Source: Patescibacteria group bacterium (lineage in GTDB: Bacteria; Patescibacteriota; Minisyncoccia; Phycocordibacterales; Phycocordibacteraceae). Taken from it: a DNA stretch of 41,935 nt. Below, in pieces: positions 1,718 to 7,643 of the stretch. The stretch spans positions 8,635 through 50,569 of the forward strand of contig JAZKAU010000002.1 of the NCBI GenBank assembly GCA_040388985.1, in the 5' to 3' direction. The notes under the pieces are model-generated. The model did no database searches. It saw nothing but the letters and a program-made list of their open reading frames with translations, and was not told the origin of the DNA. The position numbers and the translations under genes were made by a program. Each line of letters opens with the position of its first letter. The first letter of the stretch is position 1.

Positions 1718-3694
1718 CTACGGAGCGGTGATGTAGAGAGGGTTCGTCTGGAACTGGCTGTCAGTCTGATCGGTGTCGAGCGTGTTGAGGCCCGAACCAT
1801 CCGCATTCGTCGAGAAGCGGACCATGTCAAGACCGACCTGGTAGTAGTTCGACGAGGTCGGGTTGACCGTTACCGAAGCCGTGAAGGTCTCGGTGTCGCC
1901 GTCATGGACTACGTAGAAGTCAGAGCGAGTCGAATCAACATCAGCCGTCGACGTGAGCGACGCAGTGGTCGTACCCGTAGCCGTGGTGCTGAGGTTTGGA
2001 TCGATGACAACGCCTGCAGTCGTAGAACCAGCGCTCGTAGAGATCGCCTTTGGAACGTAGACATCATCGCCCTCTGCCGTCACATCGAACTTGAGGGTGA
2101 ACGTTCCGTAGTTGTCCGGAGTGTTACCGCCCGTCGTTCCCGTCTGTGCAGAGTTGCTGTTGCCCTCAACATTGATACCGCCGTTGAGTACAACCGTCTG
2201 CTTGTTGCCGTTAGCGGTGCCACCGACAGTAGCGTTGTCGCCAGTGTCGAAGCCCTCAGCGTCTACCTGAGCACCAATTACCGAGAAGGTAAGGCTGGTG
2301 CCCGAAGCGTAGTGGCCGCTGGCAGCGAGAAGATCGATGTTGAGCTCGAAGTCCATCGTGTCGTTGCTGCTTACCGTAACGTCATCGTTTCCGAAGTCGA
2401 AGGCAAGTAGGCCAGAAGTGCCCGTGCCGCTGATAGTCGCATCGTAGTCATGACCGTCAACCGTAAGGGTTGCGCGGCGAACGATGTGGCTAAGAGCGAG
2501 CGAGGTGCTGCTGACGTTAGCAGTAACGTCAAGGTTGTTGAGAAGAACATCCTGATCGGAGTTGTTCTTGATCTGGAACTTGAAGACCGAGAGGTCGTTC
2601 GTGCTGTTCGTGTTGTCAGCGACGAGCGTACCTGCGTTCGGATCATCCGAAGATTCGCGGACCGAGACATCGCTGCTGCTGATGTTGCTGCTGTTGAAAC
2701 CAACAGAAACATGATCAGTGTCCTTACCCGTGTACTCCTGGATACCAGCGCCATCTACGGCGCGGAGGTCCTGGCTCTTGATAGCAAGGTCGAAGCTCTG
2801 ATCCTCGTTAACAGTGTCGATCGTGTCCTGTGCATCAGCGCGGATCGAAAGCTGGGCCGTAGCACCATCCTTTACGACGCCGTTGGTCGTGATGTCGATA
2901 GAATACGAGTTTGCACCGCTGCTGTTCAGATCAATGTCGGTGCTGTTGCTGTCCCATGCATCGCGGCTTCCTGCATCAACGGAACCGATCTTGGTCGAGC
3001 CGTTGTAGACAGAGAGCTTGCTGAAGTACTTCCATGGGTTGGTGCTTGCGCTGGACGTGTGGTCCGTTGCCTGTACCGTGAGGCGAACGCGCTGGACGTT
3101 CACATCGCCGCCATCAACATCGAACTTCGCGGTTGCGATCTCGGTGTTGGTGTCACCCTCGCCAAGGTCGTTACCCGTGCGAAGATCATAGTTGGTGAGG
3201 TTAGCCTCGCCGCCGGAAAGACCGGTCGTCGTGGTCGTCGTCGTCGTGGTGCTGCCGCAAGCCTGACCGGTGGTCGAGCTGAACGCTGCACCAGGCATGC
3301 AACCAGGAACCGTCGAGGTCGTGGTCGTACCGCTGCCCATAGAAGCTACCTTAGCGCGAGTGATCGGGCCGAAGTAACCTGCTGCAGGAGTGATAGCGTT
3401 TGCTGCCTGGAAGGCTGCAAGAGCTGCCTTGGTCTGAGCACCGAAGTAGCCAGTAGCGCCAGCAGGAATGCTGAAGCCCTTAGCGATAAGCCAAGTCTGG
3501 AGTGCCGTTACGTCAGCTCCGGTGGAACCGACGGTAAGGTCACGCGTAAACGTAGCCGTAGTGGTCGTCGTAGTAGTCGTGGTAGCGGTCGTTGCGGTCT
3601 GTGCATTCGCGAGTGGTGCGAACGACATTGCAACGAGGCCGAGACCTGCGACTGCTGCTGCGACACGTGCAACTGTATTGGTTGCTGTAGTCAT
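1718..3694 (-). CDS. S-layer-like secreted protein with N-terminal peptidoglycan-binding domain
   Basis: Signal peptide, poly-Thr tract, FTRDLTVGSTGADVTALQTWL..GYFGPITRA PG-binding domain, Cys motif, long acidic beta-rich body; strong codon bias suggests high expression. Confidence 0.8.
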   Translation of the reverse strand: MTTATNTVARVAAAVAGLGLVAMSFAPLANAQTATTATTTTTTTTTATFTRDLTVGSTGADVTALQTWLIAKGFSIPAGATGYFGAQTKAALAAFQAANAITPAAGYFGPITRAKVASMGSGTTTTSTVPGCMPGAAFSSTTGQACGSTTTTTTTTTGLSGGEANLTNYDLRTGNDLGEGDTNTEIATAKFDVDGGDVNVQRVRLTVQATDHTSSASTNPWKYFSKLSVYNGSTKIGSVDAGSRDAWDSNSTDIDLNSSGANSYSIDITTNGVVKDGATAQLSIRADAQDTIDTVNEDQSFDLAIKSQDLRAVDGAGIQEYTGKDTDHVSVGFNSSNISSSDVSVRESSDDPNAGTLVADNTNSTNDLSVFKFQIKNNSDQDVLLNNLDVTANVSSTSLALSHIVRRATLTVDGHDYDATISGTGTSGLLAFDFGNDDVTVSSNDTMDFELNIDLLAASGHYASGTSLTFSVIGAQVDAEGFDTGDNATVGGTANGNKQTVVLNGGINVEGNSNSAQTGTTGGNTPDNYGTFTLKFDVTAEGDDVYVPKAISTSAGSTTAGVVIDPNLSTTATGTTTASLTSTADVDSTRSDFYVVHDGDTETFTASVTVNPTSSNYYQVGLDMVRFSTNADGSGLNTLDTDQTDSQFQTNPLYITAP

Positions 3695-3714
3695 AACAAT
3701 GTTCTTTTTAATTT

Positions 3715-4110
3715 TTGGACGAAACGCCTGCGACGCGCTTAGTAATAGGGTGCGTCGCGTGCGTCCGTTGTGAGTCTTGGTAATTGCGGATTCTCATCCG
3801 CGCTTTCGCACACGTTCTTTAACACTATCCGACGGAGCGCCATGTCGACTCACGCCCCCTCGGCTAGTTGGCAAACATCTTTTGCTGTTCTGTGTCCATC
3901 CGTAATAGTCCTGTGCTTCCGTCCTGATGCCCGCCTCTATGTAGTGAGACGGGCGGGCCTGAATGGACTTACGTCCATTCAGAGCCTGCATTCATGTGCT
4001 TGCTTAAGGCACTATGGTCCGGATTCCTTTTGCCATAGGCATCGTGAAGTCCGGATGAATGTCAATGTTCTCTATCGTTTCAGAATACGCACCATCCGTT
4101 TCGGTATACC
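3715..4110 (-). ncRNA. Candidate large structured RNA / 5' leader of the S-layer-like gene
   Basis: At least 8 stems; GNRA loops GUAA, GAAA, GAGA read only on the minus strand; upstream -10 TATACT at 4116-4121; no convincing ORF. Confidence 0.6.
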
Positions 4111-4115
4111 CGTGT

Positions 4116-4121
4116 AGTATA
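4116..4121 (-). promoter_or_regulatory. -10 element TATACT for the long leader (a second cgcTATACT lies at 4249-4254)
   Basis: Same hexamer that precedes many genes in this window. Confidence 0.5.
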
Positions 4122-4154
4122 GCGGTCGGTATGGGGTAATGCTGATATAGCGAA

Positions 4155-4163
4155 TGTGGATAA
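4155..4163. promoter_or_regulatory. Perfect DnaA box (TGTGGATAA)
   Basis: Exact reverse complement of TTATCCACA; single copy. Confidence 0.4.
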
Positions 4164-4259
4164 CATCAAGGTTTTATGCCGGGAGAGATGTAACGAATTC
4201 TTTCACACCTCGATTCCGGACAGGGACCAGTCCGCTATCCACCAAGGAAGTATAGCGTA

Positions 4260-4429
4260 TCGCTCGGTTTTCCGCCACAGACCGCAGCCCCTGACTCCAG
4301 GGCGCCGTAGTGCATAGTCGCCTCGCGGCGAGAATCGCTAGAACGCTTCGCTAGTCGCGATTCTCTTCTCGGCTCGTTGCACTACTGGCTGCTGCAGCTA
4401 GAAGCGTTCTGTGGCGGAAAACCTCGCTC
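4260..4429. repeat. Long hairpin element, family 2 (16-bp perfect IR flanked by TCGCTC on both sides)
   Basis: ggttttccgccacaga (4266-4281) pairs with tctgtggcggaaaacc (4408-4423); inner stems gtagtgca/tgcactac and gagaatcgc/gcgattctc. Confidence 0.75.
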
Positions 4430-4453
4430 TCGTCGGAGAAGTCCACCGATTGG

Positions 4454-5233
4454 TTAGGCGAGGGTGTAAGTGGTCCAGCGGCGCTCACCGGATCGAGACA
4501 CTTCCCCTCTCTCGACCATTGCCTGAAGCTCTCGCTGAATGGTCTTCTCGCTCACGTCGCGTATAAGCGTGGAGATATCCTTTATATAGGAAGGGCCTTT
4601 GGAGGCGAGTATCGAATGGATAGCCTCACGTCTGGTTGTAGTCTTGTCTTTTATATGTCCCATAGATTGTCCTATATCTGACGCCGCGTCAGCTTGGGGG
4701 GTCGCGCGCTTCTGGAGAGGGGTCGGTGCAGGCGCTCGCATAAGCGTATGCCGCTCGTGGCCGAGATCGCGGGTAAGCTCAGCAAGCGACGGTGCCTCCT
4801 CGAGGAAGAGCCGGGGCTCTTCGTAGGTGGCGATTTCCTGCAGGAGCTGGTGCGCTTCCCGGGCGATGAGATCGGCATTCATGGGCGATAGCAGGCCGCC
4901 GGTGCGTGCTATGGAAAGTACGCTCGAAAGCGCGAGGAGTTCGCGACTCATGGCGTCGCGCGCGCTGCCGGGAGCAAGTATCGCTCCGTCCACGAGACCG
5001 ACCGCGACCTTGTCCATACGATCGCGGAGCGCAGGCGAATTCCGGAACGCGGGAGCCACGAGATGGATGGCCTTTGCGAGACGTTCAGCCTTCTTGTAGA
5101 TATAGACGCGCCGTATGTCTTTTTCAAATATGTTAGAGAATATGCCTTTTTCTAAGACAAAGTCATCAGAATGAGCACGAATACTATCCGTCCTTTGAGG
5201 CAAGTTGTCTCTTTTCTGTCCCTTACTGTCCAT
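4454..5233 (-). CDS. Four-helix-bundle plus C-terminal DeoR-type winged HTH protein
   Basis: C-terminal IKDISTLIRDVSEKTIQRELQAMVERG..GERRW is a DeoR-like HTH; N-terminal YKKAERLAKAIHLV.. resembles IVP/Avd-type four-helix bundles. Confidence 0.7.
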   Translation of the reverse strand: MDSKGQKRDNLPQRTDSIRAHSDDFVLEKGIFSNIFEKDIRRVYIYKKAERLAKAIHLVAPAFRNSPALRDRMDKVAVGLVDGAILAPGSARDAMSRELLALSSVLSIARTGGLLSPMNADLIAREAHQLLQEIATYEEPRLFLEEAPSLAELTRDLGHERHTLMRAPAPTPLQKRATPQADAASDIGQSMGHIKDKTTTRREAIHSILASKGPSYIKDISTLIRDVSEKTIQRELQAMVERGEVSRSGERRWTTYTLA

Positions 5234-5417: not shown

Positions 5418-7643
5418 ATGGCTGCGTCAAAAAGAAAAAAAGCCCGCAAGCGCGATGCGGATAATTATCGGGCGGTCACGAAGTGGGCCGCCTCGGTCTT
5501 GCTCGTGGCGCTTGGCGTCATACTCGCGCTTGGCGGAGCCGGATTCGCAACCGGAAGCGCCTTCGCTGGAGATATCGGAAATCTTATCTTTCTCTCGGCG
5601 TTCCACGGCATCGGTCTGGAAGCGTTCCTGCTGCCGCTTGGCGTCATTGCCATCGGCATCGGTATCGTTCGCGAGAGCAGCTTCCGACCTACTCTGACGG
5701 GCTTTGCGGTCGCGCTGATACTCCTCGCCGCGCTCGCCTTCTTCGGCATAACGACGGGGACCTGGGGCGGTGCCTTGGGTTCCTTGCTTGGGGCAGAGGC
5801 AGTCACGCTATTCGGCTTCGCAGGTTCAGTCATATTGTTAGGCGCGCTCATGTTAGTGGGCGTCGGCATCATCACGGACATACGGGAACTCCTCGCGCGC
5901 ATTGGCGCTTTCGGAAGCAAGGCCCAGGAGAAGCTGAGCGCCATACCACTCCCCAAGCGCGGAGTCCGGGCGAGCGATGCCGAGACTGAAGACGAAGAGG
6001 ACGAGGAAGAACCGGAGGTCGCATCAGAGCCAGAACCGCTCGCGGGAGGTGAGGAGCGTGAACCGACGGTCACGCACTTCACCGAGAACGCGAAGAGCGA
6101 CACGGGTCCTATCCCGAACTTCGATGCCGAGTATAATCCTCCTCCCCTCTCGCTCCTTGGCGCTGATAAGGGAAAGCCGGGCGTCGGCGATATAAAGGCC
6201 AATGCGAACATCATCAAGCGTACCTTCATTAACTTCGGCATCTCGGTCGAGATGGACGAAGTATCAGTCGGCCCCACTGTCACCCGCTACGCCATAAAGC
6301 CAGCCGAAGGCGTCCGGCTCTCCAAGATTGTCGCCCTTCAGCAGAACCTCGAACTTGCGCTCGCCGCACACCCCGTACGTATCGAAGCCCCTATTCCCGG
6401 CAAGTCGCTCGTGGGTATCGAGGTTCCGAACGCGTCCAAAGCTATGGTGGGGCTGGGCGGCGTCATCGGCGCTCCAGAATGGAACTCGAACACAAAACCG
6501 CTTCTCGCCGCTATCGGGCGCGACATCGCCGGCACGCCGCACTATGTGAACGTCGCGAAGATGCCGCACGGACTTATCGCAGGCGCCACGGGATCCGGAA
6601 AGTCGGTTGCCATACACGCTGTCATCACTTCCCTTCTCTACCGCAATGGTCCTAATCAGCTACGTTTCATCATGGTTGACCCGAAGCGCGTGGAACTCAC
6701 TCTATATAATGGTATCCCCCACCTGCTGACACCGGTCATCACTGACCCTAAGAAATGCATCATGGCCCTCAAGTGGGCGGCGAAGGAGATGGATCGCCGC
6801 TACAACATCCTTGAAGGCGAACAGGTCCGCGACATCGACTCCTATCATAAGACGGTGCTTGAGCCGGCACGCAAGAAATACCCTGCTGGGCACAAGAATG
6901 CTAAGGAAATGCCGGAAGCCCTTCCCTACATCGTCATTGTCATCGACGAGCTCGCCGACATCATGCAAAGCTACCCGCGCGAGCTCGAAGCTGCCATCGT
7001 GCGCCTTGCGCAGATGTCGCGTGCTGTGGGCATCCACCTGGTCCTATCGACCCAGCGCCCGTCGGTGAACGTCATCACCGGCCTCATCAAGGCCAACGTG
7101 CCGACCCGACTCGCGCTTCAGGTATCGAGTCAGATAGACTCGCGCACCATCCTTGACCAGGGTGGCGCGGAGTCCCTGCTCGGCGCTGGCGACATGCTCT
7201 ACCTTTCCGCCGACATGCAGAAGCCGGTGCGCATCCAGACTGCCTTCATATCGGAGCAGGAAGTGAAGAAAGTCGCCCAATACATCAAGCAGAATAATGC
7301 TGGCGATCTATCCTCGGTCGATCTCACGGGCGCAGGCGTCTCGCTGCAAGAAAATAACGAGACCATGATGCTCGCTGGCGCTATGGACGACGATAGCGAC
7401 GACGACCTGTATATGGACGCGAAAGCTGCGGTCGAGGAGGCTGGGCGCGCATCTACGAGCTACCTCCAGCGCAAGCTCCGTATCGGCTACTCGCGTGCGG
7501 CGCGCCTTATGGATATCCTCGAGGAGAAGGGCGTCATAGGAGCGGCAGACGGCTCGCGCCCGCGCGATGTGCTCACCGTAGCAGGCGGGGCGGGAGCATC
7601 CGCCGATGAGGAGGACGAAGAGCCTGCTGATCGGGACTTCTAA
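5418..7643 (+). CDS. ftsK: DNA translocase FtsK
   Basis: N-terminal TM helices, Walker A GATGSGKS, IVIDELAD, STQRPSV, C-terminal gamma domain LQRKLRIGYSRAARLMD. Confidence 0.97.
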   Translation: MAASKRKKARKRDADNYRAVTKWAASVLLVALGVILALGGAGFATGSAFAGDIGNLIFLSAFHGIGLEAFLLPLGVIAIGIGIVRESSFRPTLTGFAVALILLAALAFFGITTGTWGGALGSLLGAEAVTLFGFAGSVILLGALMLVGVGIITDIRELLARIGAFGSKAQEKLSAIPLPKRGVRASDAETEDEEDEEEPEVASEPEPLAGGEEREPTVTHFTENAKSDTGPIPNFDAEYNPPPLSLLGADKGKPGVGDIKANANIIKRTFINFGISVEMDEVSVGPTVTRYAIKPAEGVRLSKIVALQQNLELALAAHPVRIEAPIPGKSLVGIEVPNASKAMVGLGGVIGAPEWNSNTKPLLAAIGRDIAGTPHYVNVAKMPHGLIAGATGSGKSVAIHAVITSLLYRNGPNQLRFIMVDPKRVELTLYNGIPHLLTPVITDPKKCIMALKWAAKEMDRRYNILEGEQVRDIDSYHKTVLEPARKKYPAGHKNAKEMPEALPYIVIVIDELADIMQSYPRELEAAIVRLAQMSRAVGIHLVLSTQRPSVNVITGLIKANVPTRLALQVSSQIDSRTILDQGGAESLLGAGDMLYLSADMQKPVRIQTAFISEQEVKKVAQYIKQNNAGDLSSVDLTGAGVSLQENNETMMLAGAMDDDSDDDLYMDAKAAVEEAGRASTSYLQRKLRIGYSRAARLMDILEEKGVIGAADGSRPRDVLTVAGGAGASADEEDEEPADRDF

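Follow-up and report, generated by a model that had tools for sequence, protein, structure and literature searches.

A conserved, structured 5′ leader with an invariant-loop hairpin ahead of a putative surface-protein gene in Patescibacteria

Long structured leaders on the mRNAs of surface proteins are, as a kind, already known in bacteria. In lactobacilli, a long structured 5′ untranslated region (UTR) is held responsible for the half-lives of 14-15 min of surface layer (S-layer) gene transcripts, and two or tandem promoters are common in front of these genes (PMC3666127). The element described here is a leader of comparable appearance in a Patescibacteria group bacterium (assembly GCA_040388985.1). 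It lies on the minus strand of a 41,935-nucleotide (nt) stretch of contig JAZKAU010000002.1, called the window in this text, within a 759-nt intergenic gap that has the gene P0002 upstream and the gene P0001, for a putative surface protein, downstream. A first-pass annotation made from the letters of this DNA had noticed some 400 nt of multi-domain RNA there, and had proposed a novel cis-regulatory or mRNA-stabilising RNA or else a large non-coding RNA (ncRNA). The analysis shows a genuine 5′ leader here, conserved and structured, which as an RNA element is new and outside Rfam. What is new is this leader family, its order-wide hairpin, and its setting in a largely leaderless genome without Shine-Dalgarno (SD) signals.

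The leader of the slpA gene of Lactobacillus acidophilus, as described in PMC3666127, resembles the present one in its length, its stable structure, its tandem promoters, the secreted surface-protein gene behind it, and the longevity attributed to the mRNA. One trait of an S-layer-type 5′ UTR is also found here, namely a long structured leader directly upstream of the gene and, in relatives, on the same RNA-library contigs, with no terminator in between. In contrast, homology to the slpA leader is absent in sequence and in structure, the leader is several-fold longer here (~415-548 nt), a loop motif invariant across the order and an SD-less genome are particular to the present case, and longevity of the mRNA is a prediction here.

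The Patescibacteria, or candidate phyla radiation (CPR), make up a large share of bacterial diversity, and gene regulation in them is almost uncharted. To our knowledge, no CPR-specific RNA regulator has been catalogued for this locus. Judged by title and abstract, the literature searched held no paper on such a leader in CPR bacteria, and none of the papers listed for structured RNA motifs with covariation names Parcubacteria. The element offered here is defined and testable: a ~45-nt hairpin whose loop is invariant, which almost all genomes of a genus of 222 species contain and which can still be recognised across the order. It belongs to the gene of what is probably the main envelope protein.

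Core hairpin and fold of the leader

The 436 nt of positions 3695-4130 (minus strand) fold at −153.2 kcal/mol, against −119.8 ± 5.4 kcal/mol for shuffled sequences (z −6.19), and none of 100 shuffles was as good. The same is true of the predicted 548-nt leader (z −6.59; 0 of 100). This stability, far beyond that of the shuffles, and the recurrence of hairpins b, c, and e in relatives, with different stem sequences, largely bear out the initial impression of a folded RNA. The parts of the leader, in the direction of transcription, are the following:

3989 to 4061, minus strand: three-arm junction (junction a), present in the minimum-free-energy folds
3959 to 3982, minus strand: hairpin b with a GUAA loop, seen in the fold and the alignment
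3929 to 3954, minus strand: hairpin c, of the CCGUC...GACGG type, seen in the fold and in relatives
3877 to 3928, minus strand: linker with CGGAAGCAC and UACGGAUGGAC, conserved in the long-leader clade only, with no pairing established
3824 to 3868, minus strand: core hairpin, deeply conserved, ACUA-G-CCGAGGGGGCGU-GAGUCGACAUG-GCGCUCCGUCGG-A-UAGU
3786 to 3813, minus strand: variable hairpin region (GCGGAU-GAGA-AUCCGC in the window), seen in folds, differing in length and sequence among relatives
3776 to 3785, minus strand: single-stranded AUUACCAAG, of which ATTAC is conserved in the alignments
3717 to 3766, minus strand: hairpin e with an A/U-rich loop (CCCUAUUACUAA), seen in folds, absent in the short-leader clade
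3695 to 3716, minus strand: A/U-rich unpaired tract directly before the AUG, without an SD motif

The core hairpin, whose loop motif GUCGACA occupies positions 3849-3843, is the deeply conserved part. The element was recovered by blastn from 62 of 221 genus-mates, and a covariance model built on the hairpin (R1) matches 130 of 150 sampled genus-mates, nearly always once per genome, and 105 of the 112 high-quality genomes (own genome counted). In an alignment of 86 sequences fitted to the model, 98.5% of the cells of the core helix pair, compared with 86.0 ± 0.6% in shuffles, and 10 of its 14 pairs have changed on both sides (132 cells), a figure reached in none of 500 shuffles; when the partner columns were slid as a control, pairing did not exceed 65%. 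Flips from G-C to C-G and from C-G to U-A between clades are visible in the raw sequences, and the many G-U pairs fix the minus strand as the one that is read. The core hairpin is thus conserved with covariation. A leader peptide or other coding region over the core was rejected, with 6, 0, and 15 of 81 sequences open in the three frames.

The leader and the coding sequence also share contigs in RNA libraries of relatives. Contigs assembled from RNA libraries of relatives, and coming from different studies, join the coding sequence, the core, and the 5′ part of the leader; examples are X4 record 13 (718 nt) and X3 record 7 (554 nt). These contigs give no cover over 4243-4500 and low cover over 3710-3790 and 3956-4037, and the low cover was not used as evidence since the contigs come from diverged relatives. 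No terminator-like site was found between the promoters and the AUG (0 in 3500-4600).

At the level of known families, the 4227 models of Rfam 15 give no match at the gathering score in the whole window, nor in 20 related loci (67,892 nt). When matches up to E ≤ 10 were admitted for 3500-4600, six appeared, all of them far below gathering and the best with E 0.42. The element is thus absent from Rfam. RNase P RNA and transfer-messenger RNA (tmRNA), already doubted as identities by the earlier reader, were rejected because both are encoded elsewhere in the genome: RF00010 matches at G000:C2:463910-464273 (119.8 bits) and RF00023 at C2:246799-247228 (71.1 bits), and ARAGORN finds no tRNA or tmRNA in the window. 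Signal recognition particle (SRP) RNA and 6S RNA (RF00169, RF01854, RF00013) have no match in either genome or window. The 16S rRNA is also undetected by Rfam models in the assembly; these three are either unassembled or too divergent for the models. The lack of SRP and 6S matches is a formal gap, but the architecture of the leader is unlike that of SRP or 6S RNA. A similarity of GGAAGCA to SRP helix 8 is short and lies in a part that genus-mates lack.

These results bear on the idea that the region is a separate or processed stable ncRNA, merely co-transcribed with the surface-protein gene or lying beside it. Size, structure, and multi-hairpin look are typical of large ncRNAs, in the class of OLE, GOLLD, HEARO, ROOL, and raiA as well as RNase P RNA, tmRNA, SRP RNA, and 6S RNA; an RNA of 400-550 nt stands out among mostly leaderless genes, and SRP and 6S RNA escape the Rfam models in a genome that is 92% complete. 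However, unlike the large ncRNAs, the leader is invariably joined to one and the same gene family, lacks its own terminator, and matches no Rfam family. A paralogue of the gene carries its own copy, RNA contigs bridge into the coding sequence, the fold has neither an SRP-like nor a 6S-like architecture, and large parts are missing in genus-mates, a loss incompatible with a housekeeping RNA. The reading as a free-standing large ncRNA is less likely and, in our view, distinctly improbable.

Of the elements named at first sight, junction a, hairpins b, c, and e, and GCGGAU-GAGA-AUCCGC are all in the fold, whereas the long-range helix GUGAGUC/GACUCAC (helix d) is absent from it. Hairpin b (CUGAAUGGAC-GUAA-GUCCAUUCAG) recurs in relatives with a G(U/A)AAG-type loop on differing stems, and folds in 29 of 44 sequences with the loop motif according to a crude script. 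Hairpin c (GCCCGUCUC/GAGGCGGGC) forms at least 6 bp in 56 of the 57 relatives with a CNGUC motif. A long hairpin stands at the place of hairpin e in 34 of 34 long-leader relatives, with 13-18 bp and very different stems (per-sequence dot-brackets, as read by the author). Junction a, composed of CAUUCAU/AUGAAUG and the arms CCGGA/UCCGG, UGCC/GGCA, and GUGC/GCAC, does form in the fold, but the alignments show it to be an insertion of ~85 nt that is confined to the subclade of the window and absent from most relatives.

Helix d was rejected. Its 7 bp are possible in the window but are not in the minimum-free-energy fold; among 76 relatives, only 4 reach an uninterrupted run of 6 bp or more, and the two halves of one sequence pair no better (mean 3.5 bp) than halves taken across species (3.67). 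GUGAGUC is instead the apical part of the covariation-supported core hairpin. The two hairpins that helix d was said to enclose, GUGC-GAAA-GCGC and GCGGAU-GAGA-AUCCGC, overlap at bases 3801-3800 and therefore cannot both form fully; the fold retains the latter. As regards the three GNRA loops, the GUAA of hairpin b is conserved, whereas GAAA and GAGA fall in the variable stretch, and no comparative support was found for these loops as marks of tertiary contacts. RNAalifold found no structure for hairpin e or for the cross-family core when given MAFFT alignments, because the arms are out of register in them, and both were assessed by per-sequence folds.

One clade of genus-mates has leaders of only ~260-340 nt, in which the core and the promoter-proximal elements are retained but junction a and hairpins b, c, and e are missing. 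These four parts, which account for much of the 400 nt, are therefore lineage-specific decoration. The deeply conserved part consists of one ~45-nt hairpin and the promoter-proximal elements.

Outside the genus, R1 matches a single genome among 150 sampled from the order's other families, and with filters off it gives only 8 weak matches in 23 loci of those families; the model is too genus-specific to detect the hairpins across families. In these families, an exact copy of TTATCCACA, hereafter the box, is present downstream of the P0002 homologue in 23 of 29 loci, and a signal-peptide protein follows this homologue after a gap of 370-800 nt. Up to 750 nt after the box, 24 GUCGA(U/A)(A/U) motifs were found in 22 loci, and 22 of the 24 occupy an apical-loop position, compared with 85 of 550 random positions. 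Thirteen cross-family hairpins have 13-18 bp, an arm identity of 31-32%, and a loop identity of 86%, with the flanks CUA...UAG kept; they were chosen from motif-bearing loci, L194 and L195 being left out as less clear, with a repeat on all 24 motifs in the 22 loci. The core hairpin is thus an RNA element of the whole order. A second hairpin, with a GUCGAAA loop, is found ~85-115 nt downstream of the GUCGAUA hairpin in many families (L176, L180, L181, L184, L186, L189, L203, and others). Since UCGA is self-complementary, loop-loop kissing between GUCGA hairpins is conceivable.

Probable tandem promoters, box and 5′ end

Two tandem promoters probably drive transcription of the leader. The distal one, P1, would start near 4242 and give a leader of ~548 nt, and the proximal one, P2, with TATACT at 4121-4116 and the box at about −50, would start near 4109 and give ~415 nt. 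The promoter-proximal features are listed below:

4249 to 4254, minus strand: TATACT, −10 of P1, the distal promoter, whose start is predicted near 4242; −35 degenerate here
4231 to 4242, minus strand: 5′ motif GUGGAUAGCG; its predicted partner is the pre-box and box region, giving the 5′-terminal helix of P1 transcripts
4185 to 4211, minus strand: hairpin GAGGUGU...ACAUCUC, in place of the hairpin and U-run of relatives, seen in the fold and the alignment
4155 to 4163, minus strand: TTATCCACA, upstream element of P2, identical to the DnaA-box consensus, one copy in the window
4116 to 4121, minus strand: TATACT, −10 of proximal promoter P2, predicted start near 4109

Both promoters were compared over 83 unique loci, kept out of 101 with a core match after same-genome duplicates had been dropped (L098 and L045 were missed by nhmmer in this set and found later by the model). 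The box is exact in 82 of the 83, and NTATACT follows 38-42 nt after its start in 80, the −35 of P2 being degenerate in the genus. In other families, the order box, 7-8 nt, TTGCAg, 17 nt, TATAAT reads as a canonical promoter whose box stands near −50; a −10 at the distance seen in the genus is present in 22 of 23 loci (TATAAT 16, TATACT 4, TACAAT 1, TATATT 1). The TATACT that had been pointed out as a −10 is therefore nearly invariant, but it is probably not the sole start point. P1, some 100-130 nt upstream, is better conserved than P2: TTGAnn-N16-18-TAnnnT followed by GTG(G/A) lies upstream of the box in 79 of the 83 sequences. The window is among the four without it, and a repeat element (4283-4406) occupies there the place of the −35 TTGACT of relatives. 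RNA-library contigs reach 72-117 nt beyond 4124; the longest, at 117 nt, corresponds to ~4241, beside the predicted P1 start, and is a weak hint that transcripts begin at P1.

The predicted P1 transcript opens with 14 nt that are complementary to the pre-box and box, and the 548-nt fold pairs nt 1-10 with the box. This 5′ helix has support from covariation. Across 72 relatives, the mean for duplexes between own partners is −11.24 kcal/mol; when the partners are permuted it is −8.95 ± 0.24, and none of 5000 permutations was as low. The variable extension covaries by itself as well, with −3.98 against −2.42 (0 of 5000). Two relatives have a deletion after which only GUGG-UUAU-CCAC is left, a minimal terminal hairpin. 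In Gram-positive bacteria, 5′-terminal stem-loops act as stabilisers by blocking the 5′-end-dependent decay carried out by RNase J or RNase Y. The predicted helix likewise sits at the first nucleotides of P1 transcripts, and the genome encodes two RNase J and RNase Y; unlike those stem-loops, it closes a domain of 80-90 nt and its 3′ strand doubles as a DNA promoter element. The two RNase J are full-length paralogues (G000:C2:451837-453486 and C3:153205-154851; 467 and 453 bits), and RNase Y is a single gene (C2:164252-165643) of the same 0.9-Mb genome. A 7/8 complementarity between the 5′ motif and the core loop was also seen, for which no pairing is claimed, and CsrA-like GGA motifs were noticed, an idea that was dropped.

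In most relatives, and in other families too, a terminator-like hairpin and U-run (GGCCGGAAACGGCC then UUUUGCGU) lie between P1 and the box; the U-run is absent in the window and its clade. P1, the GUGG-type 5′ motif, and the G+C-rich hairpin with its U-run form a unit of ~65-90 nt (L005-L112, L175-L203), which looks like a small terminated RNA or an attenuator ahead of P2.

An attenuator of this sort would fit a riboswitch-like sensor, in which the conserved fold binds a small molecule and changes the expression of a cell-envelope gene. The leader is long and conserved, has invariant unpaired nucleotides, and precedes a cell-wall-associated gene, and the hairpin and U-run of relatives come early enough in the P1 transcript to attenuate. 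Nevertheless, this U-run hairpin stands upstream of P2 and has been lost in the clade of the window. No Rfam riboswitch matches even at E ≤ 10, the sole deeply conserved RNA element is a simple hairpin and no multi-helix junction, and junction a is subclade-specific. After the core there is neither a terminator nor a helix that would sequester the start site, and the tract before the AUG is unpaired in the fold. A riboswitch is very improbable.

The box agrees with the DnaA-box consensus in 9 of 9 positions and lies just upstream of a −35/−10 promoter. It differs from DnaA-regulated promoters in being a single, unclustered site, 97 kb from dnaA. A replication origin was rejected on the same grounds (single box, dnaA 97 kb away, no box cluster); the own genome has 10 exact copies of TTATCCACA in 920 kb, none near the window copy. 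The protein acting at this site could be DnaA, the neighbouring winged-helix protein, or another factor. The pattern box-N28-34-TATAMT (window 4163-4116, minus strand; loci L175-L215) also occurs more widely: it was seen in 313 of 401 genomes of the class, most of which have several copies (889 matches in all, the reversed control giving 19), and in 30 of 121 genomes of a phylum-wide sample, the own genome having one copy only. The box 5-9 nt upstream of a −35/−10 is thus a general promoter architecture in the class. Among the papers listed for the motif, none joins it with Patescibacteria.

This breadth raises the question of whether conservation acts at the DNA level, on promoters, the TTATCCACA site, and operators for the neighbouring regulator, the RNA fold being incidental. 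Box and TATACT are the most invariant parts, at fixed spacing and in weakly structured surroundings, and they belong to the class-wide architecture just described. However, this explanation applies to the promoter-proximal 130 nt only. The compensatory changes in the core, which keep G-U on one strand, need an explanation at the RNA level, as do the unrelated stems that carry a conserved loop across families and hairpins c and e. As an account of the whole leader, DNA-level conservation is barely plausible. A covarying hairpin with UAUACU in its loop was examined as well and found not to be robust: only 17 of 78 sequences enclose the motif in a loop (mean z −1.2). By eye, and uncounted, the short-leader clade has ACUNN/NNAGU pairings and the long clade GUAUAC/GUAUAC pairings in this area.

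Start of translation and proposed function of the leader

The start codon of P0001 follows an A-rich stretch on the minus strand without an SD motif, exactly as first described. Genome-wide, an SD motif precedes 72 of 721 crude open reading frame starts, compared with 59 of 721 in a control window, which is no enrichment. TAnnnT at −12 to −7 (within −16 to −5) before the ATG was found at 254 of the 721 starts, against 81 of 721 in the control. This signal, in a genome with no SD enrichment, is the signature of leaderless mRNAs and supports the earlier remark that most other genes here are leaderless. In Parcubacteria at large, an anti-SD motif was detected in only 48%, according to PMC9297842. 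Against such an SD-less, mostly leaderless background, the leadered mRNA of the surface protein is an exception, and it would be translated from an internal AUG after the unpaired A/U-rich tract. How translation begins at an internal AUG in a genome of this kind is a concrete question.

The following explanation accounts best for these observations. On this view the region is a 5′ untranslated leader, long and folded, and belongs to the message that encodes a secreted surface protein binding peptidoglycan. Acting in cis, its stacked stable hairpins, helped in P1 transcripts by the 5′-terminal helix, would shield the message from decay by RNase J and RNase Y, and the result would be a long-lived and highly expressed mRNA, as for the S-layer genes of lactobacilli. 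The core hairpin, with its invariant GUCGA(U/C)A loop and CUA/UAG flanks, would most likely be a sequence-specific docking site for a trans-acting factor, which might tune stability, processing, or translation once docked, and the unpaired A/U-rich tract would let ribosomes start internally at the AUG. The absence of an Rfam match, the exclusion of RNase P RNA and tmRNA, the covariation, and the shared RNA contigs together make a novel cis-acting leader the best reading, as had been proposed at first; its function would be stabilising or regulatory. The probability of a cis-acting stabilising leader with the invariant-loop core hairpin as a docking site is put at about 0.6.

Several observations weigh against this explanation. 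A pure stabiliser would need neither an invariant loop nor invariant linkers, and most of the hairpins first described are dispensable in the genus-mates with leaders of ~260-340 nt. The stretch from the box to TATACT is weakly structured (mean z −1.2). The P1 of the window has no recognisable −35, and a simple promoter scan finds none in the window. The RNA contigs come from relatives that are 85-95% alike, RNA ends are not shown by them, and such libraries can contain DNA. On the comparative side, the alignment used for covariation was fitted to the model's own structure and so leans towards it, and the permutation tests ignore phylogeny, so that relatedness inflates the shuffle tests. The fold, its conservation and covariation, the synteny, the promoter motifs, and the presence of leader and coding sequence on one RNA-library contig are shown, whereas the start sites, the stabilising effect, a binding factor and its identity, and the way translation begins are inferred. 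Finally, S-layer-like is for P0001 a label only, its role being unproven: no S-layer family matches it, and a signal peptide and a PG_binding_1 domain are all that was found.

The invariance of the loop could also mean that the leader is mainly a feedback switch and not a passive stabiliser, the core hairpin, perhaps with the GUCGAAA hairpin, serving as a translational or stability operator for a dedicated RNA-binding protein, such as the neighbouring winged-helix protein P0002 or the surface protein itself. The leaders of ribosomal-protein genes offer a parallel in their hairpins with conserved loop and flanks on a stem of free sequence. Here loop and flanks are likewise invariant on unrelated stems, many families have two similar loops per leader, and P0002 is strictly conserved as a neighbour; in genome G213, a paralogous surface-protein gene has its own short leader with the same hairpin and no box. 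Unlike in the ribosomal-protein leaders, however, there is no identified protein partner, no mimicry of a known RNA target, and no match to an Rfam leader. P0002 looks DNA-binding by the names of its homologues, some of which are called ArsR-family regulators or carry PF08220, and has itself no informative Pfam, NCBIfam, or PDB match. The hairpin of the window, moreover, lies at least 130 nt from the AUG and cannot simply occlude the start site. An operator of this kind is unlikely.

A more speculative proposal, and a quite unlikely one, takes the order-wide GUCGAUA-loop hairpin as the handle of a new control system, coupled to the replication state through the DnaA-box-like TTATCCACA, that licenses translation or stabilises the message. 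Such a system could work through an RNA-binding factor, through loop-loop kissing between two GUCGA hairpins or between mRNAs, or through a leader-trimming signal; the UCGA centre of the loop is self-complementary, and in the window GUCGAC is a 6-nt palindrome. If true, it would be a new mechanism by which CPR bacteria make envelope protein in step with growth. Returning to the leader as a cis-acting stabiliser, an element that stabilises or gates its message would be an expression part for the few genetically accessible CPR systems, and the invariant loop would serve as bait for a first CPR RNA-binding regulator.

Locus, neighbouring genes and minor observations

The two genes that border the gap are as follows:

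4454 to 5233, minus strand: P0002, upstream neighbour, 259 amino acids, C-terminal winged-helix motif, candidate local regulator
1718 to 3694, minus strand: P0001, downstream gene, 658 amino acids, signal peptide, Thr-rich linker, and PG_binding_1 domain (Pfam PF01471, E 1.4e-11)

The genome comprises 920 kb in 4 contigs, and the leader element is single-copy in it. Of 151 genomes of the order, counting the own genome, 137 have a P0002 homologue, which stands directly upstream of the leader in every locus inspected. The order of P0002 homologue, gap of 260-600 nt, and signal-peptide gene is constant in the inspected loci of the genus (the first 7 of 7). The paralogous gene of G213 (L113, G213:C1:509563-510669) also codes for a signal-peptide protein and comes directly after the terminator of the first gene; its short leader has a core-like hairpin with the loop GGUCGAUAUAC and is without the TTATCCACA box.

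The repeat element at 4283 to 4406 (minus strand) lies outside the leader, directly upstream of P1. It measures ~125-180 nt, has an internal inverted repeat (GAGAAUCGC...GCGAUUCUC), and occurs in three places: the window, the own genome at C2:496635-496816 (L014), and G018:C28 (L013). The second copy of the own genome has ftsZ ending on one side and a beta-lactamase-like gene beginning on the other, and it contains an insertion of 57 nt. The repeat is a candidate small mobile element or structured RNA.

In many fragmented assemblies of the genus, the locus is found ~6-9 kb from a contig end (for instance at 7424, 7385, 7490, 7854, 7979, and 8430 nt). This recurring distance suggests a common assembly break, for instance a repeat or an rRNA operon, that always lies equally far downstream of the surface-protein gene.

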